Notes: generated from the sequence alone by a model not told the origin. A stretch of DNA of 64,000 nucleotides from Rickettsiales bacterium (GCA_021299465.1 JAJTHB010000022.1:25256-89255), one strand, 5' to 3'. Positions 468-52,482 are shown, numbered from the stretch's first letter. Translations and numbers: made by a program.

Positions 468-1019
468 TTAACGTAGTGTTTTCAAATAAGCGATCAGGTT
501 GGCGCGATCCTGCGGGTTTTTGATGCCAGCAAACGACATCTTATTGCCCGGGATATATTTGCGCGGATTTTCAATGAAGGCCGAAAGCTCCTGTTCGCTC
601 CATTTTTTCTTGCCGTGCAGCGTTTTCAGCGCATCCGAATAAGCAAAATCACTCTTATGGGCAAAGTCGCTATTATAAATCGCCCACTGGTTAGGGCCGA
701 CGCCGTTCTTGCCGCTATTGTCAAACGTATGGCAGGCTGTGCATTTTTTGATCTGCGCTTCGCCAGCCGCTACATCAGCTTTCGCCATGAACGGAGCGAT
801 ATCTTCCGGTACCCATTCCTTGGCTGCTTCAGTGCCTGCACCAGCGTCTGCCGTTTCGGCGCCTTCAATCGTGTAGCCACGTTTTTTCTCTGAATGAGCA
901 GAGTGGCTTCCGCCGCCGTGATAGAGGATCTCGCTGCCGATACCCGCAAACATTGCTACGACACCAGCGAGCAGCACGGCACCTGCAATTTTATTCATTT
1001 CAAATGACTGACGATCCAT
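468..1019 (-). CDS. membrane-anchored class I cytochrome c (CycM-like)
   Basis: 183 aa with an N-terminal TM helix (AGAVLLAGVVAMFAGI), the CTACH heme-binding motif and a distal Met region (PGNKMSFAG). Confidence 0.85.
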   Translation of the reverse strand: MDRQSFEMNKIAGAVLLAGVVAMFAGIGSEILYHGGGSHSAHSEKKRGYTIEGAETADAGAGTEAAKEWVPEDIAPFMAKADVAAGEAQIKKCTACHTFDNSGKNGVGPNQWAIYNSDFAHKSDFAYSDALKTLHGKKKWSEQELSAFIENPRKYIPGNKMSFAGIKNPQDRANLIAYLKTLR

Positions 1020-1915: not shown

Positions 1916-2896
1916 ATGACTAAACCCTATGACACACTCGGCATCGGCAACGCGATCGTGGATGTGCTGAGCTATGTGAATGACGATTTCCTTGCTGCGC
2001 AGAAACTTGCTAAAGGCACGATGACGCTCGTTGATGAAGCGCGCTCAAAAGCCCTCTATAAGCTAATCGGCCCATCTACGGAATGTTCCGGCGGGTCGGT
2101 TGCTAACACGATGGCGGGCATCGCCTCCCTTGGTGGCAAGGGTGCGTTTATTGGTAAGGTTGCAGATGACCAGCTGGGCAAAATCTTTTCGCATGATTTG
2201 CAATCGGTCGGTGTTCGTTATCATAGCAAACCGTCGCAAAGCGCCGAGCCGTCGACTGCGAACTGCCTGGTGTTTGTGACGCCGGACGCCCAGCGCACCA
2301 TGGCGACTTATATCGGCGCCTGCGCACTCTTATCCGAAGAAGATATCGATGAAACGCTGATCGCAAACGCGCGCACCGTGTATATCGAGGGCTATTTGTG
2401 GAATGAAGAACATAACAAAGCGGCGATCCGAAAAGCGATGTCACTCGCAGACGCGCACGGCGCCGACGTCGCATTTACGCTGTCGGATACATTCTGCGTG
2501 AATACGCACCGCGATCAATTCCTCGCGCTGGTGCAAAATGACCTGGACCTGCTCTTTGCCAATGAAGCAGAGATCAAAGCACTCACCGGATCGATGGATA
2601 TCGATGAAGCGATCACCGCTGCGCGCGGCCTCGCGCCCATCGTTGCGATCACCATGGGCGAGAAAGGCAGTGTCATCGTGACGCCGGAGCATACGTACCG
2701 CGCTCCAACCCAGCCGGTTTCGAAGCTGGTTGATACGACCGGCGCGGGTGATTTGTTTGCTGCGGGCTTTCTCCATGCGCGGGCTGAGGGAAGGCCGCTT
2801 GCGGAATGCGCACAGATGGGCAATCGCTCGGCCGGCTACATCATCCAGCAGCTCGGCGCGCGCGCGATGAAACCGCTGAAGGAACTCGTCGCTTAG
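1916..2896 (+). CDS. PfkB-family carbohydrate/nucleoside kinase (adenosine kinase-like)
   Basis: 326 aa with a strong SD (AAGGAG) and the PfkB signature DTTGAGDLFAAGFL near the C-terminus. Confidence 0.85.
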   Translation: MTKPYDTLGIGNAIVDVLSYVNDDFLAAQKLAKGTMTLVDEARSKALYKLIGPSTECSGGSVANTMAGIASLGGKGAFIGKVADDQLGKIFSHDLQSVGVRYHSKPSQSAEPSTANCLVFVTPDAQRTMATYIGACALLSEEDIDETLIANARTVYIEGYLWNEEHNKAAIRKAMSLADAHGADVAFTLSDTFCVNTHRDQFLALVQNDLDLLFANEAEIKALTGSMDIDEAITAARGLAPIVAITMGEKGSVIVTPEHTYRAPTQPVSKLVDTTGAGDLFAAGFLHARAEGRPLAECAQMGNRSAGYIIQQLGARAMKPLKELVA

Positions 2897-6289: not shown

Positions 6290-7765
6290 TTAGGCTCTGC
6301 CTTCTCCCGTGGCTTTAGCGTTTGGTGCCGGACGTTTGAAAGTGTGTTGGTAATAGGCTTCGTAACCCGCGAGCATTTGTTTATCCAGTTCATCAATCAT
6401 TGCGCAAAATTTTTCTTTTTGTTCTGGCGCAAGATATTTACAGGGATCATCCATTACTGCTTTCTTGGCATCATCTATATGGGCCCGTATCTCGCGAACA
6501 GCTTCCAGCGTTTGATCTGAGCTTAGACCGCACTCCTCTCCCAGCAAGTCAATTTTTCTGGGATTAATGCGGCTTAGCACATATTTACCTTGCTTGATCC
6601 CCAATGCTAACCATGAACGCTTGTACAGTGAGGTTGGCAGCAAGTCGTAATTTGGGGTTAGTTCCCACTTCCCATTTTCTTGCCTGAACGCAAAGTTTTT
6701 TAGGTGATTATCGGTATTGCCCATCAAGAGCTGGCCAACAATGCGCATAAAAACTTTCTTTTTGCCATCTTCGCCGAGATACTTTGTCGCCAGCTTTGCA
6801 AGGTCGCGATAGGTTCCCTCGTACTTCTTATAGGAGGGCTGCCCCATCATCTGAAGTGCCTCCTCAAAATGATGCCGCCCTCCTTTGTTATTCCTGTCAA
6901 AACGAGTAATGATCAGCGCTTTGTCATCAGTTCCTGAAAGCAGTGTAATCTGAGCTTTTGCGGTTTTATCTTCCGGTAACAGCTTGGCTGTTGCGACAAG
7001 GCTCATATACTCGTTTTCAAGCATGTCAGGAAAGCGCCTCATCCTTTCAGGCGTTTTGTGCCCCATCTTGACCATGTGCGTACTCATCTCACGCCTGCCA
7101 GTAGAGCGCACATCATTGTCGGCTTTAACCCCTAACATTTTACGCTGGGCACCGCCTAAGGTGCCGCGCGCATGCATACTTTCCTCAACTTCCTGTTCTT
7201 CAGTTGCGATTACATAGTCTGGTGCAACTGCATCAACCACCGCCACGGCACCGTGGAATCCACGGCCAAAAGTCAAAAAACGCTTGTAACGTTCAACGGT
7301 AGAATCCTGTTTCTCAAAATTATCGGTGGTCAGGATATCATCCTTGAGCCCTTCCATATGATGGCAGGCGTTACGCTGCTTAAGGCCAAGCCATCCCTCG
7401 GAAACTAGATTATCAAAAAATGGCAGGAGTGCCTTACCTTCGGGATCGCTGTAACGGTAGGGCTCTGTTCTTTTGGGAAGTGTGACTGAAAGTGGCTCAG
7501 TATGTGGGTCGTTTACATAATCCGGATGGTAGCAAAAAATAAATTCTTTGCCGTCACAGTAAGTAACACCAGCGGGAAAAATCGTTTGTCCATCCGGTTC
7601 GTGCCAGAATACGATGCCAACCTTGCCGATCCCTGCAGTACCATCAGAGTTTTTTTGTGGAATCGTTAGTTGTGGATAGCTCTTAAATTCATCAAACCAC
7701 TTCGGATCAAAGATGTAATCAAGCTTATCCTCGTCCCACCAATCTTTTGTCAGCCGAATCACCAT
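6290..7765 (-). CDS. hipA: HipA-family serine/threonine kinase toxin-like protein
   Basis: 491 aa. It has the coupling-domain motif LLPFFDNLVSEGWLG, the ATP-site motif GTLGGAQRKMLGV and the catalytic loop GNTDNHLKNFAF. Confidence 0.85.
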   Translation of the reverse strand: MVIRLTKDWWDEDKLDYIFDPKWFDEFKSYPQLTIPQKNSDGTAGIGKVGIVFWHEPDGQTIFPAGVTYCDGKEFIFCYHPDYVNDPHTEPLSVTLPKRTEPYRYSDPEGKALLPFFDNLVSEGWLGLKQRNACHHMEGLKDDILTTDNFEKQDSTVERYKRFLTFGRGFHGAVAVVDAVAPDYVIATEEQEVEESMHARGTLGGAQRKMLGVKADNDVRSTGRREMSTHMVKMGHKTPERMRRFPDMLENEYMSLVATAKLLPEDKTAKAQITLLSGTDDKALIITRFDRNNKGGRHHFEEALQMMGQPSYKKYEGTYRDLAKLATKYLGEDGKKKVFMRIVGQLLMGNTDNHLKNFAFRQENGKWELTPNYDLLPTSLYKRSWLALGIKQGKYVLSRINPRKIDLLGEECGLSSDQTLEAVREIRAHIDDAKKAVMDDPCKYLAPEQKEKFCAMIDELDKQMLAGYEAYYQHTFKRPAPNAKATGEGRA

Positions 7766-10827: not shown

Positions 10828-11297
10828 AGCGTCATCTTTCCAAAATGTCCCGTTTGCCGTAGCGCTTCGCTAAGCGCGATGCAAGCCGCTTGCGCGACAT
10901 TCAGTGATCGAACCCCAGCTTTCATCGGGATCATCACCGCCGCATCGCACGCTGCCGCCACCTCATCCGGAACCCCGCCTGTTTCCTGCCCAAGCAGCAG
11001 AATATCGTCAGGGCGGTAAGCGAAGTCCAGATAAGAGGTTGCTACACGCGGATAAACGAGTACCACACGCGGGTGCGGCGCGGCTTGTCTTAGATCAAGA
11101 AAACGCTGCCATGATGGGTGGCGATGGATGATGGCGTGATCCCCATAATCCATCATCGTCCGGCGGAGGCGTTTTTCATCCAGAATAAAACCGCACGGCT
11201 CAATGATGTGCAGCGGCACATCCAGACAGGCGCATAGCCGGATAATGCTGCCGGTGTTCTGGGGGATATCGGGCTGGTATAAAGCGAGAGAGGGCAT
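10824..11297 (-). CDS. trmL: tRNA (cytidine/uridine-2'-O)-methyltransferase, SpoU/TrmL type
   Basis: 157 aa. It has [13 protein letters not shown] and a C-terminal SLNVAQAA knot motif. Confidence 0.85.
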
Positions 11298-11303
11298 CTG
11301 AGG

Positions 11304-11419
11304 ACTCTACTATGTCGGATCGCTTGCTTGCAAGCCTGTGCTTCCGGTGCTCACATACTTAAACGTACGCTGCGCGCCGGTTCTCGCCTTGCGGCGCATC
11401 GATCTCGGCCTAGCGAGTC
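11304..11419 (+). repeat. long-hairpin element, copy E1 (diverged)
   Basis: It starts ACTCTACT and ends GCGAGTC like copies E2 and E4, with the same arm/centre layout. It lies directly upstream of the trmL start. Confidence 0.6.
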
Positions 11420-11511
11420 CTAAAAGCATTCTTAAACAAATGCTTATTTCTTAACAAAACCTTCACAAAAATCAGCTGGAAGCGGGCTTAGAGCTAAGGC
11501 ATAATCGTACT

Positions 11512-11779: not shown

Positions 11780-13468
11780 ATGACTGAATCCAGTAAGCCC
11801 AACTCCGGTGTTTCATTTTCTACCATTAAAGTGGATGGTCGCAGTCTTGAAACCAGTCAGGCATCATTTGAGGCGGCAAAAAAATGGCTTGCCGATCTTC
11901 GAGAAAAGATGCTTGAGCATCATAAATCATTTAGTGGCGCGAATTCTTTAGACGATGGCGTTCATTCTTTAGTGTCGGCAACTCAAATGCAGAGCGGAAT
12001 TATTGACGCATTGTCACACGGTGGTGCAACCAGCACGCTGATTGAGCAAACAGAAGAGGCGGCGCGGCGGCTGGGGATGCCCCCTGACGACGCCATCCGC
12101 CCCGCGCTTTACCGCATATTGGCCGTCGAGCTTCTTTCCAATGCGCAAAGCTATGACCTGCCATCGGAAAAAATGGTTATGTTAACAAAATATCAGGGTT
12201 TTTTGCCTTTACCTGAATTGCTGCTGGATACGGGAGGATATTTTGAAGGTAATGCCTCTACCGTGCAGCGGGTGGTGCTAAAGAACAAAGACCCTCGTCA
12301 AAAGTTGCGTGAGGTAAAAAAGGAAACAGACGCCATTCTGGCTGAAGAGGAATTTAAGGACTTCAAGGATAATGCCTCAACCGTGCAGCAGGTGGTGGTG
12401 AGAAACTTAGATCCGCGCCAAAAATTGCGCGACGTAAGGAGGGAAACGGACACGATTCTGGCCGAAGAGGAATTTAAAGACTTCAGGGATAATCGCTATA
12501 CCGTGCAGCAGGTGGCAGTGGATAACAAAGACCCACGCCAAAAGCTGCGCGACGTGATGAAAGAGACGTCGGCGATTCTGGCCGAAGAGGAATTTAAGGA
12601 CTTCAAAGATAATGCTTCTATCGTGCAGCAGGTGGTGGTGGATACAAAAAACCCGCGTGAAAAGCTGCGCGGCGTGATGAAAGAGACGTCGGCGATTCTG
12701 GCCGAAGAAGAATTTGTGAGCTTCAGGGATAATCACCTCACCGTGCAGCTTGTGGTGGTGGAAAATAAAAACCCGCGCGAAAAGCTGCGCGGCGTGATGA
12801 AAGAGACGTCGGCGATTCTGGCCGAAGAAGAATTTGTGAGTTTCAAGGATAATGCCTACACCGTGCAGCAGGTGGTTGCGGGGAACCAAGATCCTCGCCA
12901 AAAACTCCGTGACGTGAAGAGTGAAACGGACGCCATTCTGGCTGAAGAGGAATTTAAGGACTTTGTCGATAAGCACTCTACTGTGCAGTATGTAGTGGTT
13001 AGGAACAAAGACCCGCGCCAAAAGCTCCGTGACGTGAAGAAGCAAACGGACGCCATTCTGGCAGAAGTGGAATTTGAGGACTTCAGGGATAATCGCCCCA
13101 TCGTGCGGCGGTTGGTGGTGCAAAATAAAGAACCACGCCAAAAATTACGTGACGTGAAGAAGCAAACGGACGCTATTCTGGCTGAAGAGGAATTTAAGGA
13201 CTTCAAGGATAATGCCTCCACCGTGCAGCAGGTGGTGGTGGGGAATAAAGACCCTAGGGAAAGGCTCAGGTCAGCCTTAAAAAGCTATGAGTCCTTAGAG
13301 AAAGATTATCAAGAGCCGCTCGATGCTGGTAAGTTGACGAAAGCACATATTTTGCATGCCGCCGCCACTTACACGGGGCAGGGACAGAAAGATCGGTTGA
13401 ATGCGACACTGGCGAGAAAGCGCCTTGCGGCCTCACCGCTCGCTTCGTCGGTTGGGGTGGGCATATGA
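11780..13468 (+). CDS. orphan tandem-repeat protein (8.5 x 40-aa repeats)
   Basis: 562-aa ORF. Residues from about 159 to 498 are 40-aa units with consensus ASTVQQVVVxNKDPRQKLRDVKKETDAILAEEEFKDFKDN. Confidence 0.8.
   Translation: MTESSKPNSGVSFSTIKVDGRSLETSQASFEAAKKWLADLREKMLEHHKSFSGANSLDDGVHSLVSATQMQSGIIDALSHGGATSTLIEQTEEAARRLGMPPDDAIRPALYRILAVELLSNAQSYDLPSEKMVMLTKYQGFLPLPELLLDTGGYFEGNASTVQRVVLKNKDPRQKLREVKKETDAILAEEEFKDFKDNASTVQQVVVRNLDPRQKLRDVRRETDTILAEEEFKDFRDNRYTVQQVAVDNKDPRQKLRDVMKETSAILAEEEFKDFKDNASIVQQVVVDTKNPREKLRGVMKETSAILAEEEFVSFRDNHLTVQLVVVENKNPREKLRGVMKETSAILAEEEFVSFKDNAYTVQQVVAGNQDPRQKLRDVKSETDAILAEEEFKDFVDKHSTVQYVVVRNKDPRQKLRDVKKQTDAILAEVEFEDFRDNRPIVRRLVVQNKEPRQKLRDVKKQTDAILAEEEFKDFKDNASTVQQVVVGNKDPRERLRSALKSYESLEKDYQEPLDAGKLTKAHILHAAATYTGQGQKDRLNATLARKRLAASPLASSVGVGI
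12254..13273 (+). repeat. 120-bp in-frame tandem repeat array (8.5 copies)
   Basis: Units start at 12254, 12374, 12494, 12614, 12734, 12854, 12974, 13094 and 13214. There are no spacers and the reading frame is continuous. Confidence 0.9.
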
Positions 13469-15411: not shown

Positions 15412-16173
15412 ATGAAAAAAAGAATTTTGTTTGCCGCATCGCTTTGGGTCGTTGTACTTGCCCCTTCAGCCTATGCAGCTGGTGATGTGAAGCATCCCCG
15501 TAGTGTGGAGTGGCCGTTTAAGGGTGTGTTCGGCACCGTCGATGAACAGGCGGCCCAGCGCGGTTTTCAGGTTTATAAAGAAGTCTGTGCGGCGTGCCAT
15601 GGCCTGAAGCGCATTGCCTTTCGTAACCTCGCTGATATTGGTTTTACCGAAGCAGAGATCAAGGCCTTGGCTGCGACCTACCAGATCAAGGATGGCCCCA
15701 ATGACGAAGGCGAAATGTATGAGCGTCCCGGCAAGCCGTCTGATTATTTCCCAAAACCTTATGCTAACGAAAACCAGGCGCGTGCTACCCATAACGGCGC
15801 TTATCCCCCCGACCAGAGCCTGATTATTAAAGCGCGTGAGAATGGTGCGAACTACCTTTATTCGCTACTCACCGGCTATGTGCCAGCACCGGCTGATGTT
15901 CAGCTGGGCGCCGGCATGCACTATAATCCTTACTTCCCGGGCGGTGCTCTCGCGATGGCCGCGCCGCTAGCTGATGGTCAGGTAACCTATCAGGACGGCA
16001 CGCAGGCGACTGTCGACCAGATGGCGCGTGATGTTACTATCTTCCTGCAATGGGCAGCAGAACCAGAGATGGAAGATCGCAAGCAGATGGGCATCAAGGT
16101 GTTATTCTTCCTTGCCGTATTCACGGGCTTTATGTTTGTGGCGTATCGCAGGTTGTGGAGTAATCTCCACTAA
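15412..16173 (+). CDS. petC: cytochrome c1
   Basis: ATG 15412 (MKKRILF signal peptide) is preferred over TTG 15397. It has the CAACH heme motif and a C-terminal TM anchor. Confidence 0.9.
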   Translation: MKKRILFAASLWVVVLAPSAYAAGDVKHPRSVEWPFKGVFGTVDEQAAQRGFQVYKEVCAACHGLKRIAFRNLADIGFTEAEIKALAATYQIKDGPNDEGEMYERPGKPSDYFPKPYANENQARATHNGAYPPDQSLIIKARENGANYLYSLLTGYVPAPADVQLGAGMHYNPYFPGGALAMAAPLADGQVTYQDGTQATVDQMARDVTIFLQWAAEPEMEDRKQMGIKVLFFLAVFTGFMFVAYRRLWSNLH

Positions 16174-16174
16174 T

Positions 16175-16293
16175 ACTCTACTTTGGCTTCAAATCTTGTT
16201 GCGATTGAGTCTCCCTAAGAAAACGTCATGTACTTGTATGTACACTCGTTTTCTCGTACTCTGTCGCGGCGCGCTTTTTTGCCAAAGCGAGTT
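16175..16293 (+). repeat. long-hairpin element, copy E2
   Basis: It starts 2 nt after the petC stop. The outer stem is CTTTGGC/GCCAAAG and the inner stem is GAAAACG/CGTTTTC. Positions 16184-16289 are identical to 18542-18647. Confidence 0.9.
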
Positions 16294-16329: not shown

Positions 16330-18528
16330 ATGGCGTTAACTAAGCAGATACCCTGGTCAAGTTGCCGCTTGGTTCTACTCGCTACCATTTGCCTGCTTCC
16401 TTTTAACGCTTATCCGCAGCAGCAGTTTGGCCGAACCAGCTTTGGAGATGCAAGCCCGATTGCTGATGATGAGCCGGTGGTGCTTTCCGCTGATGATGTT
16501 TCGTATGACCAGGAAAGCGAGGAAGTCACCGCCAGCGGCAATGTTGAAGTGGTACAGGGCGAGACTGTGCTTGTGGCGCGCGAACTTTCCTATGACCAGA
16601 AAAACAACAAGGTGAAGGCAAAAGGCGATGTCAGCCTGATGGATCGTAATGGCCATGTGGTATTCGCCGATGAAATGGAACTTGCTGACGATATGAGTGT
16701 TGGCGTGATCCGGCATTTTAAAGCGCGACTTGCCGACGATTCGCTATTTGTTGCCACGCGTGGCCGCAAGGTTGACGAAAACGTGACCGAGCTGGAGCGT
16801 GCCGTTTATTCGCCGTGTAAAGTATTCTGCGAGGAAGGCCGTGCGAAAAATCCGATGTGGCAACTAAAGGCCGATCGCGTTCGTATCGATGAGGCCGAGC
16901 AGGAAGTAGTTTACCGCGATGTCGAAATGGAGGCCTTTGGTGTGCCGGTTTTCTACACGCCCTATCTTTCGCATGCAACACCCGGCGCTGATAACAAAAG
17001 CGGTTTCCTGACGCCTGAACTGCAAGCCAACGGTAATCTGGGCACCGTGGTCAAAACCCCTTATTACTATGTGATCGGTCAAGATCGCGACATGACCGTT
17101 ACCCCTTATAATACAACCAAAGAAGGCCTGGTGATGGCTGGTGAATATCGGCAGCGTTTCGATGACGGAACATTCACTACCGATGGTAGTATCACCCGCC
17201 CAAAAGATCGCAATGCCCTTGGCTTCGTCGATAGGGGTAACGAAATACGCGGCCATATCAATGCGACCGGCCAGTTTAAGTATGATGCTGATACTGACTG
17301 GGGTTTTGCTTTACGCCGCACTACGGACGACACTTATCTTCGTCGTTATAAATTCAGCCAGGACACGTTACTCACCTCGCGTGTTTTCGCCGAGCGTTAC
17401 AATCTCACGGCGCCGAGCGACCGAAGCTTCCTGCGTGCGCAGGGCCTTGCATTTCAAGGGCTGACAGCAAGTGATGATTCGGATCGCATCCCGATGATTG
17501 TGCCGCAAATTGATATGGCCTATGAAAGCGCGCCTGGCGCCTATAATTCACGCCTGTCGGTGGTTGCGAACAGCATGATGCTGACACGCGATGATGGCCC
17601 TAAAAGCCGCCGCCTGTCAATGACCGGTGGCTGGCGCCTGCCTTATATTACGAATGATGGACAGATTATCGAAGTGGCTAGCCGCCTTCGCACCGATGTG
17701 TATGATGTGGAAGATGTGACCCTTGCCGATGGTCGCCGTTTTGATGGTACAACCGGCCGCGTGATTCCGGAAGCATCGCTTTCCTGGCGTATGCCTTTTA
17801 TCAACCAGCTCAGTGAATCCCAGCATGTGATGATCGAGCCGGTGGCGGTGCTGGCGGCAAGCCCGCGTGGCGGTAACCCCGAAAAAATTCCCAATGAAGA
17901 TAGCCGTGTGCCGGAATTTACCGATACCAATCTTTTTGAAGCCAATCGTTTTGCGGGCTATGATCGTATCGAGACCGGCACGCGTGTCAGCTATGGTCTG
18001 CGAAGCCAGCTACAGTTTGCCGAAGGCTATGTGGTTGATGGCCTGATCGGCCAGCACTACCGCGGCGAAACCGACCGTAACTTCCCTTTTTCAAATGATC
18101 TGGACAGCCATTTTTCTGATTATGTGGGCAAGCTCGGCGTATCGCTGGCGCCGTTTGATATTGCCTATCGTTTCAGGCTGGACAAGGATGATTTTTCACC
18201 GCAGCGCAACGAGGTTGATGCCAACTTTTTCTACCGCCGCCTGAGCCTTACCGGCAACTATCTCATGCTCAATGACGATCCTATCCTCTCCGATAAGGAA
18301 GAAATCAGCGGCACCGCAACGCTTGGCCTTACGAGTGAGTGGCAGTGGTTCGTCACCAGCCGCCGCGATATCGAAACCGACTTCACCTCAGCGGCGAGCA
18401 CCGGCCTTACCTTTAAAAATGAATGCACCTATTTTACGACCGTGATTGGCAGGGAATTCACACGCGACCGCGATATCGAACCCACCACGACCTTCCTGTT
18501 TCGCATCGCGCTCAAAAATCTGGAGTAG
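16330..18528 (+). CDS. lptD: LPS-assembly outer membrane protein LptD
   Basis: 732 aa with a signal peptide, an OstA-like N-domain and a long beta-barrel region. It sits in the classical position upstream of surA. Confidence 0.9.
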   Translation: MALTKQIPWSSCRLVLLATICLLPFNAYPQQQFGRTSFGDASPIADDEPVVLSADDVSYDQESEEVTASGNVEVVQGETVLVARELSYDQKNNKVKAKGDVSLMDRNGHVVFADEMELADDMSVGVIRHFKARLADDSLFVATRGRKVDENVTELERAVYSPCKVFCEEGRAKNPMWQLKADRVRIDEAEQEVVYRDVEMEAFGVPVFYTPYLSHATPGADNKSGFLTPELQANGNLGTVVKTPYYYVIGQDRDMTVTPYNTTKEGLVMAGEYRQRFDDGTFTTDGSITRPKDRNALGFVDRGNEIRGHINATGQFKYDADTDWGFALRRTTDDTYLRRYKFSQDTLLTSRVFAERYNLTAPSDRSFLRAQGLAFQGLTASDDSDRIPMIVPQIDMAYESAPGAYNSRLSVVANSMMLTRDDGPKSRRLSMTGGWRLPYITNDGQIIEVASRLRTDVYDVEDVTLADGRRFDGTTGRVIPEASLSWRMPFINQLSESQHVMIEPVAVLAASPRGGNPEKIPNEDSRVPEFTDTNLFEANRFAGYDRIETGTRVSYGLRSQLQFAEGYVVDGLIGQHYRGETDRNFPFSNDLDSHFSDYVGKLGVSLAPFDIAYRFRLDKDDFSPQRNEVDANFFYRRLSLTGNYLMLNDDPILSDKEEISGTATLGLTSEWQWFVTSRRDIETDFTSAASTGLTFKNECTYFTTVIGREFTRDRDIEPTTTFLFRIALKNLE

Positions 18529-18532
18529 TTTC

Positions 18533-18650
18533 ACCCCGCTCTGGCTTCAAATCTTGTTGCGATTGAGTCTCCCTAAGAAAACGTCATGTACTTGTATGTA
18601 CACTCGTTTTCTCGTACTCTGTCGCGGCGCGCTTTTTTGCCAAAGCGGGT
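18533..18650 (+). repeat. long-hairpin element, copy E3
   Basis: It starts about 5 nt after the lptD stop. It shares a 106-bp perfect match with E2. Confidence 0.9.
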
Positions 18651-18673
18651 AAAGTGATCATTTTGGAGTTGTC

Positions 18674-19933
18674 ATGCGTTTCTGGCTCATCGTTCTTTTG
18701 CTTTTGGCTTCTGTGCCAGCGTTTGCACAGAAACCCGCTTCGGGCGGCCTTGCTATTGCGGCGGTGGTAGGTGATGAGGTGATCTCCTCCTATGATGTGG
18801 AGGCAAGGCTTCGTTTTATCGTGGCCACCACCAAACTCACCAATAACGCCGAAACGCTCGCTCGTGTGAGGCCTCAGGTGGTGCGCGCATTGATTGATGA
18901 ACGGCTGCAGCTGAAAGAAGCAACCCAAAATAACATCGCTGTGACGGATGAGGATGTGGCTAAAGCCATCGCTGGTATTGAGTCACAGCGCAGCATGCCT
19001 GCGGGCGCTATTGCGCGGATGCTCACGCAAAACAATGTACCCAAGGCTACGTTTGAGCAGCAAATTCGCGCACAGATTGCCTGGAGCAAATTTGTGGGCA
19101 AGCGTATTCGCCCTGCGATTAAGATCAGCGATGAAGAAGCTGTGGCGAAGCAAAAAACGATCAGCATACCCAAGGTTAATCAGGAGCTGGAAATTGCCTT
19201 CCTCACAGTACCGGTGGACAAGCGCAAGCGCGAGAACGAGGTGCGCGCTATTGCCGCCAAGCTTGCTTCTGAAATGCGTGCGGGCGCTAACTTTGAGGAG
19301 CTGGCACGGCAATTTTCCAGCCGCAGCGCTAAGATGGATCGTTTCTGGATAAAGCCCGAGCAACTCGAACCAAGCATAGGTAAAACCCTGACGACGGCTG
19401 AGGCAGGCACCATCACCGCACCGATTCGTACCGAAATCGGCTATACCATCGTTAAGGTCTATAACACCCGATCACTTGAGCAAAAAGCTGATCAAGACCA
19501 GCAGGTGAAAGTAAAAGATATTCTGCTGAAACTTAAGGCTGATGCAGAGAATCAAGAGGCGAGCACCCTGCTTGTGATCGCTGAGGAAATTGCAAAAAAT
19601 CCGGGAGCCTGCGAAGAAAAAGGTATTGCAGGTATTGCCAATCTCGAGGATGTCGAGGTGGTGGTGGCGATACGTGACGCTCTGTTTTCTGAACTTTCTG
19701 CCGCGCTGAAAGCGATCGTTAGCAATTTAAAGGTTGGCGAGGCCTCGCCACCGTTTGCGACCGATCGTGGTATTCAGCTCTATATGCTCTGTGACCGTAA
19801 GGAAGTGGCCCCAGCCCCTGCGATAGCCGACCTCGGCCAAGTCAAAAACCTTATTCTTGCTGAGCGGCTCGAGCTGGAAGCCCAGAAAACCATGAGGAAT
19901 CTGCGGAGCGATACCTATGTTGAAATACGCTAA
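18674..19933 (+). CDS. surA: SurA-like periplasmic chaperone / peptidyl-prolyl isomerase
   Basis: 419 aa with a signal peptide (LLLLASVPAFA). It has a SurA N-terminal-domain-like region and a parvulin-like segment. Synteny with lptD supports the call. Confidence 0.8.
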   Translation: MRFWLIVLLLLASVPAFAQKPASGGLAIAAVVGDEVISSYDVEARLRFIVATTKLTNNAETLARVRPQVVRALIDERLQLKEATQNNIAVTDEDVAKAIAGIESQRSMPAGAIARMLTQNNVPKATFEQQIRAQIAWSKFVGKRIRPAIKISDEEAVAKQKTISIPKVNQELEIAFLTVPVDKRKRENEVRAIAAKLASEMRAGANFEELARQFSSRSAKMDRFWIKPEQLEPSIGKTLTTAEAGTITAPIRTEIGYTIVKVYNTRSLEQKADQDQQVKVKDILLKLKADAENQEASTLLVIAEEIAKNPGACEEKGIAGIANLEDVEVVVAIRDALFSELSAALKAIVSNLKVGEASPPFATDRGIQLYMLCDRKEVAPAPAIADLGQVKNLILAERLELEAQKTMRNLRSDTYVEIR

Positions 19934-26621: not shown

Positions 26622-26900
26622 ATGGACACGCACATGGAACGCACACAAATTTATTTGCCTAAGCAGCTTAAAATCGAGCTGCACACGATTGCAGCAGTAG
26701 AGCAAAGCAACTTAAGTGAGTTATTGCGGCAAGCCGGTCAAAAGCTGGTGGAAGAGCATAAAAAGCAAAAGCGCAGTAAAGATAAAGAATTTAAGCGCGC
26801 GCTTGATCGCTGCTTTGGGATTTGGAAGGATCGCGATCCCAAGGAATTTGAGGAAATCCGCCGCAGCGCCGATAGAAAGTTTCCCGGATGGAACGATTAG
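26622..26900 (+). CDS. vapB: ribbon-helix-helix antitoxin (VapB-like)
   Basis: ATG 26622 follows a GAGAGG SD. The N-terminal segment is ERTQIYLPKQLKIELHTIAAVEQSNLSELLRQA (RHH-type). It overlaps the PIN gene by 13 nt. Confidence 0.75.
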   Translation: MDTHMERTQIYLPKQLKIELHTIAAVEQSNLSELLRQAGQKLVEEHKKQKRSKDKEFKRALDRCFGIWKDRDPKEFEEIRRSADRKFPGWND

Positions 26901-27271
26901 TTCTGGATGCCGATGTGTTCATCGATATGCTGCGAGGACACCGTCCTGCGTATGATTTTATTTTGCAGCATCAAGAACGATTGATTCTTTCGGTCACGAC
27001 TCTTACGGAGGTGCTTGCTGGGTTCAAATCAAAGGCGGAGGAATCGGCGATTATCGGGACGGCGAGTCTGCTTCAAAAAGTGCCGCTTACCGAAGCCATG
27101 GCGATGCGCGCCGGCTATTTAAAACAGGCTTATTATAAAGCGCACGGTTGCGGCATCATTGATTGCATGGTGGCCGCGACAGCAGAAGCGCTGGATGCCA
27201 GCATCGTAACCCTCAACAAAAAACACTACCCGATGCTGAAAGGCAAGGTGGTGGTGCCGTATAAAAAATGA
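26888..27271 (+). CDS. vapC: PIN-domain toxin (VapC-like)
   Basis: 127 aa with an N-terminal LVLDADVFID acidic motif and an internal IDCMVAATA motif. It is coupled to the upstream RHH gene. Confidence 0.8.
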   Translation: MERLVLDADVFIDMLRGHRPAYDFILQHQERLILSVTTLTEVLAGFKSKAEESAIIGTASLLQKVPLTEAMAMRAGYLKQAYYKAHGCGIIDCMVAATAEALDASIVTLNKKHYPMLKGKVVVPYKK

Positions 27272-27625: not shown

Positions 27626-27657
27626 ATCTTAACAAATGGAGGGGGGTAAGCAAGCGG
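27626..27657 (-). promoter_or_regulatory. conserved promoter-like motif (copy 1)
   Basis: The minus-strand sense reads CCGCTTGCTTACCCCCCTCCATTTGTTAAGAT. This gives TTGCTT, a 16-nt spacer, and an extended -10 TGTTAAGAT, about 33 nt upstream of ATG 27592. A near-identical copy is at 50747-50778. Confidence 0.45.
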
Positions 27658-27776
27658 CGTTTGATGACATTACCATGACGATGCCCTCAAATTCAGTAGA
27701 TTATGGCGAAACAGTGGGTTAAAAGGGCGGGATGATAGAAAAAACTACTAATTTTCCGCTTTGCATACATTTTTAT

Positions 27777-27845
27777 TGTCATGCCGCACTTGTTGCGGCA
27801 TCTGGTTATTATTGCGCCAGACCCCGCAATAAATGCGGGGTGACA
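27777..27845. repeat. GTCATGC-type double hairpin element
   Basis: It reads TGTCATGCCGCA-CTTG-TTGCGGCAT then CCCCGCA-ATAAA-TGCGGGGTGACA. It abuts the hom start. Confidence 0.65.
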
Positions 27846-27847
27846 GC

Positions 27848-29194
27848 ATGAATAATTCCCTTCGCATCGGCATCGCAGGGCTTGGCACGGTTGGCGGCGG
27901 GGCGCTGAAGATTCTGCTTGGCCAGCCGCAGCTGCTGGCGGCGCGCGCGGGGCGCAGCCTTCAGGTGGTCGCGGTTTCGGCGCGGGATAAGAAGAAGTAT
28001 GAGCGGCTAGTGGCGGGGATTGGTGCTGATACCCACCCCCTCACCCCACCCCTCTCCCCACAGGGGAGAGGGAGTATCAAGTGGGTGGATAACCCGCTTG
28101 AGCTTGCCTCTGACCCTGACATTGATGTGGTGGTGGAGTGCATTGGTGGCTCGGAAGGCGTAGCAAAGGCGCTCGTGGAGACCGCACTTAAAAACAAGAA
28201 ATCGGTGGTCACCGCCAATAAGGCGCTGATCGCCCATCACGGTGTAGCACTCGCCAAGCTTGCTGAAACAAGCGGTGCGCTGCTGGCATTTGAAGCGGCG
28301 GTGGCGGGCGGCATCCCCATTATCAAGGGCCTGCGCGATGGCTTGGCCGCAAACCGTTTCACCCGTATTGCCGGAATCTTAAACGGCACCTGCAACTACA
28401 TTCTCACTACCATGTGGCATGAAAAGCGTGACTTTGCTGATGTGCTGGCCGAGGCGCAGGCGAAAGGCTACGCCGAGGCAGATCCAAGTTTTGATATTGA
28501 TGGCGTGGACGCGGCGCACAAGCTTGCGATCCTGGGAAGCCTTGCTTACGGGATAGCGCCAGCGATTGATAAGGTGAGTATCGAAGGCATTCGCCGCGTG
28601 ACGCTGGCCGACATGCAGTTTGCCGATGAGCTTGGTTATGTCATTAAGCTGCTGGGTATTGCCGGCGAAAGTATGGAAGGTGTGCTGATGCGCGTGCATC
28701 CGTGTTTGGTGGCCAAGGGCACGCAACTTGCGGCAGTGGGCGGCGCGTTTAATGCAGTGCTGGTGGAAGGTGATAGCGTTGGCACGGTGCTGTTTGAAGG
28801 GCGCGGCGCAGGCGAGGGACCAACGGCATCGTCGGTGGTAGCGGATATTATGGATATTGCGCGCGGTGTTTCTTACAAGCCGTTTACGCTGCCTGCCGCC
28901 AAGCTTGCCAGCGGCAAATTTGCCGAGCTTTCCGGTTTTAGTTGTTCGTATTATCTGCGCCTCAGTGTGATCGATCAGCCGGGCGTGCTCGCCGATGTGA
29001 CCGCTATTTTCAAAAAAGAAGGCATCTCGATGCGCTCGGTGATCCAGCATTCGCATAGTCCGGGCGAAATGGTGCAGGTGGTCATTACCACCCATGCCAC
29101 GCAGGAAGCAGCAATGGAGCGCGCGCTGGCCGCCATTGCCAAACTGCCATTTATGAAAGAAGCGCCGTTTAGAATCAGGATTGAGGGATTTTGA
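27848..29194 (+). CDS. hom: homoserine dehydrogenase
   Basis: ATG 27848 (MNNSLRIGIAGLGTVGGG) is preferred over 27833, which lies inside the hairpin element. It has a C-terminal ACT-like domain. Confidence 0.9.
   Translation: MNNSLRIGIAGLGTVGGGALKILLGQPQLLAARAGRSLQVVAVSARDKKKYERLVAGIGADTHPLTPPLSPQGRGSIKWVDNPLELASDPDIDVVVECIGGSEGVAKALVETALKNKKSVVTANKALIAHHGVALAKLAETSGALLAFEAAVAGGIPIIKGLRDGLAANRFTRIAGILNGTCNYILTTMWHEKRDFADVLAEAQAKGYAEADPSFDIDGVDAAHKLAILGSLAYGIAPAIDKVSIEGIRRVTLADMQFADELGYVIKLLGIAGESMEGVLMRVHPCLVAKGTQLAAVGGAFNAVLVEGDSVGTVLFEGRGAGEGPTASSVVADIMDIARGVSYKPFTLPAAKLASGKFAELSGFSCSYYLRLSVIDQPGVLADVTAIFKKEGISMRSVIQHSHSPGEMVQVVITTHATQEAAMERALAAIAKLPFMKEAPFRIRIEGF
28031..28075. repeat. C-rich heptamers plus CCCTCTCCCC/GGGGAGAGGG palindrome inside hom
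   Basis: The core palindrome is 28050-28059 / 28063-28072. It is translated in frame as HPLTPPLSPQGRGS. The same core is found at 50105-50127. Confidence 0.8.
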
Positions 29195-29195
29195 T

Positions 29196-30212
29196 ATGAA
29201 AACTACAACCAAAAAGAAACCAGCTCCCGCAGCCAAAACCGCTTTCTGGAGTGATCGTAACTTTGCACTTGAAGCCGTGCGCGTGACCGAAGCCGCTGCT
29301 CTGGCCTGCTCACGGCTCATGGGACGTGGCGATGAAAAAGCCGCCGACCAGGCCGCGGTGAATGCGATGCGCGAGGCGCTGAATTCGCTGTCGATCGACG
29401 GTACCGTAGTGATCGGCGAAGGCGAGCGCGACAAAGCGCCGATGCTCTATATCGGAGAAAAAGTGGGCAGTAGCTTTGGCCCATCGGTGGATATTGCGCT
29501 CGATCCGCTCGAGGGCACGACCATTTGTGCCAAGGGTGGCGTCAATGCGATGGCAGTGGTAGCCATGGCGGAAAAAGGTGGCTTCCTGCATGCGCCGGAT
29601 GTCTATATGAACAAAATCGCGGTTGGGCATGGTTTGCCAGATGGCGTGGTGGATCTGGATGATAGCATTGCAACCAACTTAAAGCGTCTTGCAAAAGCCA
29701 AGAAATGCGACGTGGCGGATCTGGTCGTGTGTATTTTAGAACGCGACCGCCACAAAGAGCTGATCGCTAAAACCCGTGAAGCTGGTGCGCGTATTCAGTT
29801 GATTCTTGATGGCGATGTCGCTGGTGTCATCGCCGCGTCGATGCCCGATACTGGTGTTGATTTATATGCCGGCATTGGCGGCGCTCCGGAAGGTGTGCTG
29901 GCGGCGGCGGCGCTGCGCTCGATTGGTGGGCAGATGCAGGGGCGACTGCTCTTTAAAACGGCAGAGGAAAAGAGCCGTGCCAAGCGTATGGGCATCAGTG
30001 ATCTGAACAAGGTCTACGCTTTAGAAGAACTGGCAAAAGGTGATGTGATGTTCGCCGCAACCGGTGTTACCGATGGCTCGATGCTAAAGGGTGTGCGTCG
30101 CTATCCGGGTGGGGCGATGACGCACTCGATCGTGATGCGATCAAAAACCGGTACGGTGCGTATGGTAGAGGCGCACCATAACTTCACCCGCAAGACCTGG
30201 GGCGACGTTTAA
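29196..30212 (+). CDS. glpX: class II fructose-1,6-bisphosphatase
   Basis: The ATG is 1 nt after the hom stop. It has ALEAVRVTEAAALA and the metal-site region DPLEGT. Confidence 0.9.
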   Translation: MKTTTKKKPAPAAKTAFWSDRNFALEAVRVTEAAALACSRLMGRGDEKAADQAAVNAMREALNSLSIDGTVVIGEGERDKAPMLYIGEKVGSSFGPSVDIALDPLEGTTICAKGGVNAMAVVAMAEKGGFLHAPDVYMNKIAVGHGLPDGVVDLDDSIATNLKRLAKAKKCDVADLVVCILERDRHKELIAKTREAGARIQLILDGDVAGVIAASMPDTGVDLYAGIGGAPEGVLAAAALRSIGGQMQGRLLFKTAEEKSRAKRMGISDLNKVYALEELAKGDVMFAATGVTDGSMLKGVRRYPGGAMTHSIVMRSKTGTVRMVEAHHNFTRKTWGDV

Positions 30213-30216
30213 TAGA

Positions 30217-30334
30217 ACTCTACTCCAGCTTCAAATCTGCTTGCGATGAAGCCTCCCTCGGAAATGTCGTGTACTTTCATGTACACTCATTTCCTCGGAC
30301 TCCATCGCTTCGCGCTTTTTTGCTGGAGCGAGTT
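30217..30334 (+). repeat. long-hairpin element, copy E4
   Basis: It starts 4 nt after the glpX stop. The layout matches E2, but the stems are CTCCAGC/GCTGGAG and GGAAATG/CATTTCC (compensatory changes). Confidence 0.85.
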
Positions 30335-30452
30335 CCTGATCTAGTCCGATAGAATTAATGGATCAGTCAGCCTTGCTATGCGCTTAGCTCAAGCTAGCGA
30401 GTTTACTGAGCTCAATCAGCATCTGCCGCAGCCTAGCGAAATTAAATAGAGA

Positions 30453-49949: not shown

Positions 49950-50155
49950 CTTCTTATGCTTCTCCCCGGCGGGGAGCCGCCTGCGTTCTTGCGAACTTCG
50001 GCGAGCCTGTGTGCCTTGCCTCGCCATAGCGTATTCGGAGGCGGGAAGGGCGGGATGAGTGGGTGGTTCAAGGATAAACTAAACATTTTACCCCCTCAAC
50101 CTAACCCTCTCCCCGTTGGGGAGAGGGAATAGGCGCAAGAATAAGAATCCTTATG
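49914..50155. repeat. 19-bp imperfect direct repeats flanking a hairpin-rich insert at the der 3' end
   Basis: AAGAATAAGAATCCGTATG (49914-49932) matches AAGAATAAGAATCCTTATG (50137-50155). The insert contains CTCCCCGGCGGGGAG and CCCTCTCCCC-GTT-GGGGAGAGGG hairpins. Confidence 0.75.
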
Positions 50156-50694: not shown

Positions 50695-50746
50695 AATTTT
50701 CTCATCTTAATTGAAACTCTTTCTATTATTGCCCAAATCTTAACAA

Positions 50747-50778
50747 ATGGGGGGGGTAAACAAGCCGGGTTTTGTGAA
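50747..50778 (-). promoter_or_regulatory. conserved promoter-like motif (copy 2)
   Basis: The minus-strand sense reads CCGGCTTGTTTACCCCCCCCATTTGTTAAGAT, about 52 nt upstream of ATG 50694. It aligns with 27626-27657 with 3 substitutions and 1 indel. Confidence 0.45.
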
Positions 50779-50866: not shown

Positions 50867-51109
50867 ATGGAAACGCTTTCTTTTCAAGCACCTAGCGAGC
50901 TTAAAGCCAAACTTGAGCATTTTGCCAAAGAGATGGATCGCAGCAAGGCGTACCTCATTCGGCAGGCACTGGAGGAATATCTCAATGAACGTAAAGCCTG
51001 GAGCGAGCTGGGTGAGTTCATGGCACCACGTATTGCGGCAGCGAAGCGAGGCGATATACTTAATGAGGATTTTGATACGATCATCGCTCAGGCAGACGCG
51101 AAAAAATGA
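50867..51109 (+). CDS. ribbon-helix-helix antitoxin (CopG/ParD-like)
   Basis: 80 aa. The RHH-type segment is LSFQAPSELKAKLEHFAKEMDRSKAYLIRQALEEYL. 4-nt overlap with the parE-like gene. Confidence 0.75.
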   Translation: METLSFQAPSELKAKLEHFAKEMDRSKAYLIRQALEEYLNERKAWSELGEFMAPRIAAAKRGDILNEDFDTIIAQADAKK

Positions 51110-51426
51110 GTCCTAAACTTACGCTTCGCCTCACGTCGCAGGCCAAAGCGGATCTACAGTCCATCTGGCGCTACACTATTGAGACATGGTCAAATGATCA
51201 GGCAAATCGCTATGTCGATTCTATCAAGCAGGCCTGCTTACAGCTCATGCATCATCCTGCGCTTGGGCGGCGCCTGATAGAAATCGACCCGGGTTTGCGC
51301 GTCTATCGCTTGCAGCATCACTTTATTTTTTATCTGGAGGATAGAAGCGGCGTGATTTTTATTGCATTCCTCCATGAACGGATGGACATAGTGAACCGGC
51401 TTATTCACCGTTTGGAACAACCATGA
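51106..51426 (+). CDS. parE: ParE/RelE-superfamily toxin
   Basis: 106 aa with LTSQAKADLQSIWRYTIETW at the N-terminus and IAFLHERMD at the C-terminus, typical of ParE. Confidence 0.8.
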   Translation: MSPKLTLRLTSQAKADLQSIWRYTIETWSNDQANRYVDSIKQACLQLMHHPALGRRLIEIDPGLRVYRLQHHFIFYLEDRSGVIFIAFLHERMDIVNRLIHRLEQP

Positions 51427-52352
51427 CCCCCGCGATTGAAATCACGAACCTCAAAAAAACCTATCCTGGCAGCAAGAAGATGCCGCCGAAGGAGGCCTTG
51501 AAGGGCGTGAGCCTGAGTGTACCGCGCGGCTCGTTTTTTGGGCTGCTGGGGCCTAATGGCGCCGGTAAATCCACCATGATCAACATCATGGCTGGCCTCG
51601 TGCTGAAAACTTCCGGCGAGGTGAAAATCTGCGGCCACGATATTATCACCGACATGCGCGCGGCGCGCAGCGCGCTCGGCGTCGTGCCGCAGGAACTCAT
51701 TTTAGATACGTTCTTCACCGTGCGCGAGGCGCTGGATATCCATGCCGGTTATTACGGTGTGCCAAAGGCGAAGCGCCGCACGCAGGAAATCATCGATGCG
51801 ATGGGGCTTTCGGATAAGGCCGACGTGCCGTCGCGCCGCCTGTCAGGCGGGATGCGCAGGCGATTACTGGTGGCCAAAGCGCTGGTGCATAGTCCTGAGG
51901 TGCTGATTCTTGATGAGCCGACCGCGGGGGTGGATGTGGAGCTGCGCACCCAGCTGTGGGATTATGTCAAAGAGCTGAACCGAAATGGAACTACCGTGCT
52001 GCTCACCACCCATTACCTCGAAGAAGCACAGGAACTGTGTGATACCATCGCGGTGATTAATCACGGCGAGGTGGTGGCGTATGACAGCAAAGCGAACATG
52101 CTGAAGATGATGGATAGCAAGCAGCTGGTGCTGACACTTTCTGAGAAGCTGGCGCAGGCGCCACAGGCGCTTTCCATGTGGCAACCACAGATGGATGCGG
52201 AGGGCAAGCTGGTGCTGACCTACAAACCGAGCAAAGAATCGCTTCAGGATATTTTGGACGCGGTGCATGGCGCTGGCTTGGTTGTGCGCGATATCACCAC
52301 TCGCGAAGCGGATCTCGAAGATGTGTTTGTTCATCTAACTCATGCTGCTTAG
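51423..52352 (+). CDS. ABC transporter ATP-binding protein (ABC-2/YadG-like)
   Basis: 309 aa. It has Walker A GPNGAGKST, signature LSGGMRRRL and Walker B LILDEPTAGVD. ATGA overlap with the parE stop. No permease gene follows. Confidence 0.9.
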   Translation: MTPAIEITNLKKTYPGSKKMPPKEALKGVSLSVPRGSFFGLLGPNGAGKSTMINIMAGLVLKTSGEVKICGHDIITDMRAARSALGVVPQELILDTFFTVREALDIHAGYYGVPKAKRRTQEIIDAMGLSDKADVPSRRLSGGMRRRLLVAKALVHSPEVLILDEPTAGVDVELRTQLWDYVKELNRNGTTVLLTTHYLEEAQELCDTIAVINHGEVVAYDSKANMLKMMDSKQLVLTLSEKLAQAPQALSMWQPQMDAEGKLVLTYKPSKESLQDILDAVHGAGLVVRDITTREADLEDVFVHLTHAA

Positions 52353-52355
52353 CGG

Positions 52356-52468
52356 GCGAATTCTGGCGGATGATCTGCTTGTCATGTTCGTGCTCGAATC
52401 CTCATGTAGCGCTGCTACACTGCGGTTCTACGCGCGCCCATTTCGCGCGCTCATCTCGCCATAATCGC
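52356..52468 (+). repeat. long-hairpin element, copy E5 (diverged)
   Basis: It starts 4 nt after the ABC gene stop. The outer arms are GCGAATTCTGGCGGATGA and TCATCTCGCCATAATCGC. The centre is CATGTAGCGCTGCTACA. Confidence 0.6.
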
Positions 52469-52482
52469 CCTTTGGAAAACCC

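Follow-up and report, generated by a model that had tools for sequence, protein, structure and literature searches.

The enterobacterial ERIC or IRU sequence, a 127-bp MITE, is an imperfect palindrome over its whole length, found in transcribed intergenic regions and carried on the same transcripts as the neighbouring genes (review PMC2229807). How it affects the upstream mRNA varies with its orientation, and it matters whether ribosomes finish translation next to it (PMC2229807). REPINs are extragenic, hairpin-forming doublets of ~70-110 nt in which compensatory changes are common and which persist for a long time in their lineages (PMC3116915), and enzymes acting on folded single strands recognise the strand via bulges, as is the case for TnpA-REP (PMC8266576). 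The IS630-type MITEs, such as Correia/NEMIS of Neisseria and RUP of pneumococcus, measure 100-155 bp, carry terminal inverted repeats, insert at TA targets, are co-transcribed and fold as RNA hairpins (PMC2229807).

The window analysed here, a stretch of 64,000 nucleotides from a Rickettsiales bacterium (GCA_021299465.1 JAJTHB010000022.1:25256-89255), holds five hairpin elements (E1 to E5), and about 45 further copies were recovered in total from many metagenomes. They probably represent a new superfamily of mobile palindromic elements of the MITE/REPIN kind, both non-coding and non-autonomous. The superfamily resembles ERIC, the Correia/RUP-type MITEs and the REPINs in kind, and is excluded from ERIC by its sequence and from the REPINs by its architecture. 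As in ERIC, the size is similar and the imperfect palindrome spans the whole element. However, there is no sequence similarity to ERIC (blastn with a word size of 11 gave no match in 5,426 complete E. coli genomes), the hosts are uncultured alphaproteobacteria and 57% of the copies sit in a single orientation against a stop codon, a placement that is not described for ERIC in PMC2229807. The extragenic position and the hairpin with compensatory changes are shared with the REPINs, but the arms are not REP palindromes preceded by GTAG and do not self-fold consistently, CTAC being present only in the left arm of some copies. Moreover, no RAYT gene was found in the sequence examined, and the ends often look like TA-flanked inverted repeats. 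In contrast to the IS630-type MITEs, our elements give no more than hints of a TA duplication, a parent IS sharing their ends was not found, and the orientation bias relative to the upstream gene is unexpected from a symmetric TA target. The elements do have several of the traits by which bacterial MITEs are recognised: they are shorter than 300 bp and non-coding, with terminal inverted repeats, dispersed copies and presence or absence at orthologous sites. The five copies in the window, and the parts of the focal copy E4, are the following:

11301..11421, + strand: E1, subfamily S3; fold z = -3.4; carries the shared apex motif
16175..16292, + strand: E2, subfamily S1; 106 bits with covariance model R1; preceded by the petC stop codon (16171-16173) and followed by lptD, which starts at 16330
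18531..18657, + strand: E3, subfamily S1, with its core at 18533-18650; 92 bits with R1
30215..30335, + strand: E4, the focal copy, subfamily S1; 120 bits with R1, E = 1.6e-22
30228..30238, + strand: left-arm block GCTTCAAATCT of E4, conserved and largely unpaired
30270..30288, + strand: apical hairpin of E4, TGTAC-loop-GTACA plus flanking TCA/CTC bases, a module common to all subfamilies
30313..30323, + strand: right-arm block CGCTTTTTTGC of E4 with a T6 run, specific to S1, which served as a search anchor
52354..52470, + strand: E5, subfamily S4; fold z = -3.8; carries the shared apex motif

A sequence-only reading of this DNA had described five copies in the same orientation, at 11304-11419, 16175-16293, 18533-18650, 30217-30334 and 52356-52468 on the + strand, and these were placed correctly. 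Each of them is one long imperfect hairpin of -42 to -48 kcal/mol, with z-scores of -3.4 to -7.7 against dinucleotide shuffles, none of which folded as stably. In E4 the fold reaches -46.5 kcal/mol (z = -7.7), and the palindrome, GAACTC...GAGTTC, begins 3 nt behind the TAA stop codon of glpX (30210-30212). E2 is 95% identical to E3 over the full length and 79% identical to E4. The termini ACTCTAC...GCGAGT, which had been reported for three copies, are common to E1, E2 and E4, and the paired substitutions described between E2 and E4 are present in both stems: CTTTGGC/GCCAAAG becomes CTCCAGC/GCTGGAG in the outer stem and GAAAACG/CGTTTTC becomes GGAAATG/CATTTCC in the inner stem. The core of the left-arm block, ATCTGCTTG, is kept also in copies recovered without that core as a search anchor, and the apical stem covaries among copies (GTAC/GTAC, GTAT/ATAC, TTAT/ATAA, GTAG/CTAC). 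Across the superfamily the elements are 113-150 nt long and non-coding, with no ORF of at least 80 aa confined to them.

Four of the five copies had been said to begin shortly after the stop codon of a plus-strand gene. The ORF listing and the family scans agree: the stop codons of petC, lptD, glpX and the ABC ATPase gene end at 16173, 18528, 30212 and 52352, and E2, E3, E4 and E5 start 2, 5, 5 and 4 nt further on, respectively, which leaves gaps of 1-4 nt. E3 comes after the lptD stop codon (18526-18528) and before surA, which starts at 18674; E5 comes after the ABC-ATPase stop codon (52350-52352), and the gene behind it, which starts at 52483, encodes an RlmI-like methyltransferase. E1 adjoins the trmL start, as had been proposed, at a distance of about 6-7 nt; its site is a divergent spacer between trmL (minus strand, start codon at 11297) and an 82-aa ORF (11512). 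We also observed that E2 and E3, direct and 95% identical, flank the essential lptD gene with a spacing of 2.36 kb. The pair indicates recent copying or gene conversion, and as a direct pair around lptD it is a potential deletion substrate.

Metagenome contigs were searched with a two-block pattern in which all helices were free to vary and which was validated on the window beforehand. The pattern matched at least 120 loci; about 40 among the 120 loci listed are full-length copies with unrelated flanks from many projects, and the others are AT-rich chance matches. The covariance model R1, built from a 40-copy alignment (A4), also recovered copies without the anchor blocks when run on these loci, and the further subfamilies come from these unanchored copies and from a scan for the apex motif. 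The five window copies had been taken as a single family. This holds for the superfamily, to which all five belong given that they share the same length class, termini and apical module, but not at the lower level, where only E2-E4 form S1 and both E1 and E5 stand apart, making three subfamilies in the window. With R1, which is of the E4 type, E1 and E5 score only 10.5 and 10.4 bits, respectively (E about 8). The global alignment of E1 with L142:13027 has a z of 9.6 and that with L051:7028 a z of 7.3; these two, together with copies in L055 near 6722 and in L145 near 5412, are the E1-like members of S3. The central 60 nt of E5 are matched at about 88% (by eye) by L167:2612-2735 and L166:2720-2843, the E5-like members of S4, and L077:2762 is an S1 variant without the T-run. 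The superfamily has at least four subfamilies, with the apex motif CTCAYGTAC..GTACRCTGCG, termini of the type (T)AAACTC.../...GAGTTT(A) and the length class in common. Two length classes of palindrome, 117-127 nt and 141-150 nt, are seen, the long forms (~142-150 nt) adding a 13-bp outer stem to a core of ~118-125 nt. No solo copies of the 13-bp outer palindrome were found, so the long forms did not arise by insertion into some other small repeat.

The host bacteria form a clade of uncultured alphaproteobacteria. Pattern scans of viral contigs gave chance matches only, and blastn gave no match to plasmids or phages. In the window, the gathering score of Rfam 15 was reached by a tRNA only, and at E up to 10 nothing overlapped E2 or E3. 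A literal motif search met the family motifs in none of the papers that it covered. The elements add a well-supported and so far uncatalogued repeat superfamily for a poorly known uncultured alphaproteobacterial clade, whose nearest MAGs are named 'Rickettsiales bacterium' (NCBI).

The nearest relatives were found through their GlpX, LptD and MreC homologues. These are MAGs of uncultured alphaproteobacteria, listed at NCBI as 'Rickettsiales bacterium', 'Alphaproteobacteria bacterium' or 'Pseudomonadota bacterium'. E3 and E4 are missing from the syntenic loci L151, L152, L153 and L155-157 (GlpX identity of 93%, 87%, 85% and 83%), and also from L166 and L167 (LptD identity of 77 and 76%, respectively). 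The gap between lptD and surA is 1-4 nt in the E3-free relatives L152, L153, L155, L166 and L167, and in L151, L152, L153 and L155 glpX is followed by other sequence, with no E4. GlpX, LptD and PetC have the same C-termini and stop codons in the window as in the relatives. Since the native stop codons are kept and syntenic relatives are without E3 and E4 (and L167 also without E2), the copies are insertions. R1 found no copy over ~150 kb of relatives (GlpX relatives of 83-93% and MreC relatives of 65-66% identity). The MITE-like spread suggested by the sequence-only reading is thereby upheld, both by the dozens of dispersed copies with differing flanks and by the syntenic relatives without E3 and E4.

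The sole nearly empty E2 site is that of L167, in which an 11-nt spacer is all that separates petC from lptD. In L166 the same spacer has 75 nt and begins with GCTCTAATGCGGCGGGGAATCTGCTT, which resembles the left end of the element, and the L155 site has GCAAAGCGAGT, a 10-nt match to the right end that is anecdotal and found no support from the covariance model. It is possible that L166 and L155 carry remnants at the E2 site, that of L155 being perhaps a decayed copy. Separately, unrelated long palindromes lie right after the glpX stop codon at L153:11036-11112, L155:11060-11170 and L151:3200-3290 (for example TGTCATCCTGAGCGTAAGCAAAGGA...TCCTTTGCTTACGCTCAGGATGACA), and several kinds of hairpin repeat seem to gather behind this gene.

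The paired substitutions between E2 and E4 had been read as covariation, and this is seen as well in the larger alignment. In the MAFFT alignment A4, of 40 sequences, RNAalifold gives 24 pairs in four helices, and 16 of these 24 stem pairs show compensatory changes. The cells are paired in 95% of cases, compared with 79.8% in shuffles and 39-47% in slid controls, and there are 173 double-change cells against 60.5 ± 8.1 in shuffles (0/500 reach the observed value) and 13-28 in slid controls. Given that the anchor blocks are unpaired, search anchoring does not inflate the covariation. G-U-type cells (25) are about as frequent as A-C-type cells (20), and the wobble pairs are without strand bias. 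Pairing is therefore kept equally on both strands, which gives no support for selection specific to the sense transcript. The hairpin is not demonstrably an RNA feature, and the constraint could be on the DNA.

Strong covariation, conserved unpaired blocks and an orientation that is fixed relative to the upstream gene are also what would be expected of a conserved structured cis-regulatory RNA or a small RNA gene that is not mobile. However, we consider this very unlikely: the associated genes are unrelated, the elements are missing at most of the orthologous sites compared in close relatives, several copies can occur within a few kb, and there is neither a wobble strand bias nor an Rfam match. 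For mobile palindromic elements, the reading that we prefer, the copies form an unusually clean data set on what repeat hairpin covariation says of RNA function versus DNA-level mobility, as it joins strong covariation to the lack of a G-U over A-C bias and to copies that are tolerated in tight operon junctions.

The placement at gene ends was evaluated in 47 copies, with ORFs of at least 80 aa ending near the element; the null was random placement in the non-ORF space of the same loci (6.2%), with a binomial p. The bias toward stop codons extends from the window to the family as a whole, as 27 of the 47 copies abut a same-strand stop codon by their 5′ end (null 0.062, p = 8.5e-21). Only five copies abut in antisense, a sense to antisense ratio of 27:5 (p = 1e-4). 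The distance from the stop codon to the core is -3 to +5 nt in the short forms and 10-17 nt in the long forms, the latter corresponding to the outer boundary. The count is conservative, as L070 and L080 apparently adjoin the ends of secA and infA at contig edges (by eye); L148, which adjoins ftsQ by synteny, is likewise beyond the 27 counted. The upstream genes are housekeeping genes (queE, lptG, ftsQ, degP, lpd, DAHP synthase, acetolactate synthase, mreC, plsX and cobA), and in the at least seven copies that lie between convergent genes the sense gene is always the nearer.

The L139 copy starts 9 nt after a tRNA-Leu gene. At two further loci, L091:4790-4856 and L046 (minus strand, just upstream of 4239), the copies come directly after a tRNA-like 3′ end with T-arm, acceptor strand and CCA. 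ARAGORN and Rfam made no call on these tRNA-like ends, which could be a tRNA fragment or a piece of a two-piece tmRNA.

The sense-oriented abutment to gene ends is a robust property of the family, and an unexplained one. If it is due to insertion specificity, it would represent an undescribed targeting mechanism; if it is due to selection, it would be a strong rule for the tolerance of long hairpins in compact genomes. E. coli REP elements reportedly also occur close to stop codons, in work by Liang, Rudd and Deutscher from 2015, where a stable hairpin within ~15 nt of the stop codon is said to be placed so that it could disturb the terminating ribosome. The functional effect belongs to a short REP that is unrelated to our elements, and the likeness noted here is one of position.

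Imperfect hairpins of this size, located right after ORFs and in the ORF orientation, are reminiscent of integron attC sites, and ...AAC / GTT... is found near the element ends. It is nevertheless exceedingly improbable that the copies are orphan attC-like recombination sites, a reading that the genomic context contradicts, since the flanks are syntenic housekeeping genes and not cassettes, with no intI gene and no array. In addition, the ends are a misfit to RYYYAAC / GTTRRRY, as in GAACTC...GAGTTCCTG.

A role in transcription termination had also been proposed for the elements, on the ground that the right arm would hold a GC-rich mini-hairpin next to a T-run. That ground does not stand, since GCGCGC alone is unable to form a hairpin and the T-run is, in the predicted fold, a part of the long stem, where it pairs with an AAA run upstream. 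Only S1 carries the T6 run: it is missing from E1, E5, L077:2762, S3 and S4, all of which are still at gene ends, and three subfamilies are without it. A consensus terminator scan makes no call at the elements, which do not show what defines intrinsic terminators, a compact G+C-rich stem-loop with a U-tract immediately behind it, placed where transcription units end. Furthermore, in about half of the sense-abutting copies the next co-directional gene lies 11-50 nt downstream, and sense copies with the T-run are found in operon junctions 11-40 nt upstream of the next cistron. The gap from copy to next gene is 11 nt in plsX|fabH and in 107-aa ORF|rimM, 18 nt in lptD|surA and 36 nt in X|gshB, and the queE|queC junction also holds a sense copy with the T-run. 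The ilvI|ilvH pair was dropped as an operon example, the ORF downstream of L108:10092 having no family match. With copies in such tight junctions, an efficient terminator would silence essential downstream genes.

The rival reading would be that of a portable intrinsic terminator or 3′-end stabiliser, in which the inner hairpin with C-U6 behind it would, in the sense orientation, halt RNA polymerase or keep out 3′ exonucleases, and copies right behind genes would be retained by host selection. It could draw on the S1 long hairpin, which is directly followed by CUUUUUUG and has an AAA run upstream, on the sense orientation of 27/32 abutting copies, and on the copies between convergent genes with the sense gene nearer. 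We find it unlikely, however, given the gene-end copies without a T-run, the silent consensus scan, the U6 run that is embedded in the outer stem through its pairing with AAA, the wobble pairs without strand bias, and the T-run copies within plsX|fabH, queE|queC, 107-aa ORF|rimM and lptD|surA. A general terminator function is thus not supported, and the elements are probably not primarily transcription terminators, even though copies at convergent sites such as glpX/MCP (E4) may be candidates for partial termination or mRNA-end stabilisation. For annotation, knowing the superfamily helps with hairpins that are otherwise mistakable for terminators, sRNAs or assembly artefacts.

In regards to how the mobile elements would move, terminal inverted repeats are present, of the form AAACTC(TA)CTTTGGC / GCCAAAG(C)GAGTTT or TAGACTTCCTCA.../...TGAGGAAGTCTA. 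The palindromes commonly end in TA...TA or TAG...CTA, with exact TA..TA ends in 9/46 copies and several more that are off by 1-2 nt. Family-wide, no 9-mer stood above the permutation control as a target-site duplication, and the TGGAGTAGT/TGGAGTTGT repeat around E3, a candidate for one, is within chance. TA-containing stop codons are not significantly enriched at the insertion sites (p = 0.25), and a transposase that cuts TA symmetrically would leave the 27:5 orientation bias unaccounted for. The earlier statement that the window has no transposase is borne out as far as tested, by Pfam scans and by synteny with relatives, and ~300 kb of copy-bearing loci hold no recurrent protein family and no transposase or RAYT with matching ends.

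The elements land at stop codons or a few bases after them, in one case after a tRNA 3′ end, mostly with the same end toward the gene, and the native stop codon and C-terminus stay intact. We propose that the inserted copies would then be co-transcribed in 3′ UTRs or intercistronic spacers. A putative moving enzyme that recognises the folded strand or the inverted ends would account for the upkeep of both the whole-length and the apical hairpins, and the retained hairpin may make the insert structurally compact and hence tolerated.

Several features concern the strand on which the elements lie. Neighbouring copies within loci are co-oriented 12:1, and an asymmetry at the stem base (CTC-TA-C on the left, G-C-GAG on the right) recurs in S1 and S3. 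GC skew is positive over the whole window and all five copies are on that strand; among the copy-bearing loci, the non-gene-flipping skew on the element strand is +0.026 (p = 0.017; 16/23 loci with genes on both strands), with an overall gene content of 51% on the element strand in the 23 skew loci. The co-orientation, the GC skew and the stem-base asymmetry fit, in a weak and indirect way, a strand-specific mechanism that acts on a folded DNA strand.

Two more specific readings, neither of which we hold more than tentatively, can be built on such a mechanism. It is conceivable, if doubtful, that the family is a gene-end-homing element, whose folded asymmetric hairpin a putative strand-specific recombinase integrates behind stop codons or tRNA 3′ ends, in one orientation tied to the direction of the gene and/or of replication; copies would then persist or re-seed at the petC, ftsQ and trmL-upstream sites across species. 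If true, gene-end homing would be a mode of target selection undescribed for bacterial MITEs or REPINs. The other possibility, on which we would place little weight for now, is that the element is REPIN-like and persists by vertical inheritance, with a single-copy HUH enzyme (RAYT or IS200/IS605-type) that acts on one folded DNA strand during replication, which would give strand- and replication-direction-specific placement. Under it, one would expect what is seen in several respects: the element forms a hairpin over its full length and compensatory changes in it are frequent, as for REPINs (PMC3116915); the stem-base asymmetry recurs in S1 and S3, and TnpA-REP tells strands apart by bulges (PMC8266576); copies near each other share their orientation 12:1; the G-rich strand, after the coding-strand correction, tends to be that of the element (+0.026, p = 0.017, 16/23 loci); and the same gene ends are occupied in different genomes. 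However, the arms are not short REP palindromes and have no GTAG 5′ of the stem, a Y1 transposase gene occurs neither in the window nor in the copy-bearing loci, and the GC-skew signal, drawn from loci of only 3-14 kb, is weak.

The occupation of the same gene ends in different genomes was found repeatedly. The petC end is occupied in the window (E2) and in L113, by two copies, with the PetC proteins 63% identical; the ftsQ end holds a short form in L112 and a long form in L148; and the end of the gene for one 198-200-aa protein holds S3 in L055 and S1 in L114. The spacer upstream of trmL, equally long (~215 nt) in three lineages, is occupied in all of them, by S3 in the window and by S4 in L166 and L167. 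The recurrent gene ends often hold different subfamilies or forms. By a rough estimate, three coincidences among ~30 abutting copies are ~10 times what independent insertion at ~2,000 gene ends would give. The recurrence may reflect a limited number of tolerated sites, a site preference, or old insertions homogenised in each genome, and the shared occupied gene ends could also stem from long-term retention under host selection instead of mobility.

Among the occupied sites, the two L113 copies (1123-1246 and 1311-1436) stand in tandem after petC and belong to different subfamilies, and the second of them is flanked by a ~31-nt direct repeat, GCTCGAT.AA.AACCTGATTTTCGCTGAGG. In L160, inverted copies at 869-993 (-) and 2489-2613 (+) bracket a cob(I)alamin adenosyltransferase gene and mreC. 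As the same two genes lie close to one another, in the same order and without copies, in L158 and L163, the L160 arrangement is no obvious composite transposon.

The window carries other repeats as well. A 42-nt palindromic repeat, CCCTCTCCCC..GGGGAGAGGG, lies at 28035-28076, with a second, intergenic copy at 50090-50131. The first copy is in frame in the homoserine dehydrogenase gene (27833-29194), which has ~23 extra residues compared with L152 and L155; the homoserine dehydrogenase of L151 has a longer insert at the same position. In-frame palindromic inserts are known from Rickettsia, and the repeat in the homoserine dehydrogenase gene resembles them. A 38-nt direct repeat, ATCTTAACAAATGGAGGGGGGTAAGCAAGC..., is found at 27626-27663 and 50737-50774 (76% identical), upstream of hom and of parD/parE, respectively, and could be a shared promoter or leader motif. 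A 562-aa ORF at 11780-13468 contains nine tandem repeats of 120 nt (40 aa) and has no NCBIfam match; it is missing in the syntenic L166 and L167, where the 82-aa ORF is directly followed by petA. Finally, the toxin-antitoxin genes of the window encode ParD/ParE (50867-51426), a PIN-domain protein (26888-27271) and HipA (6290-7765).
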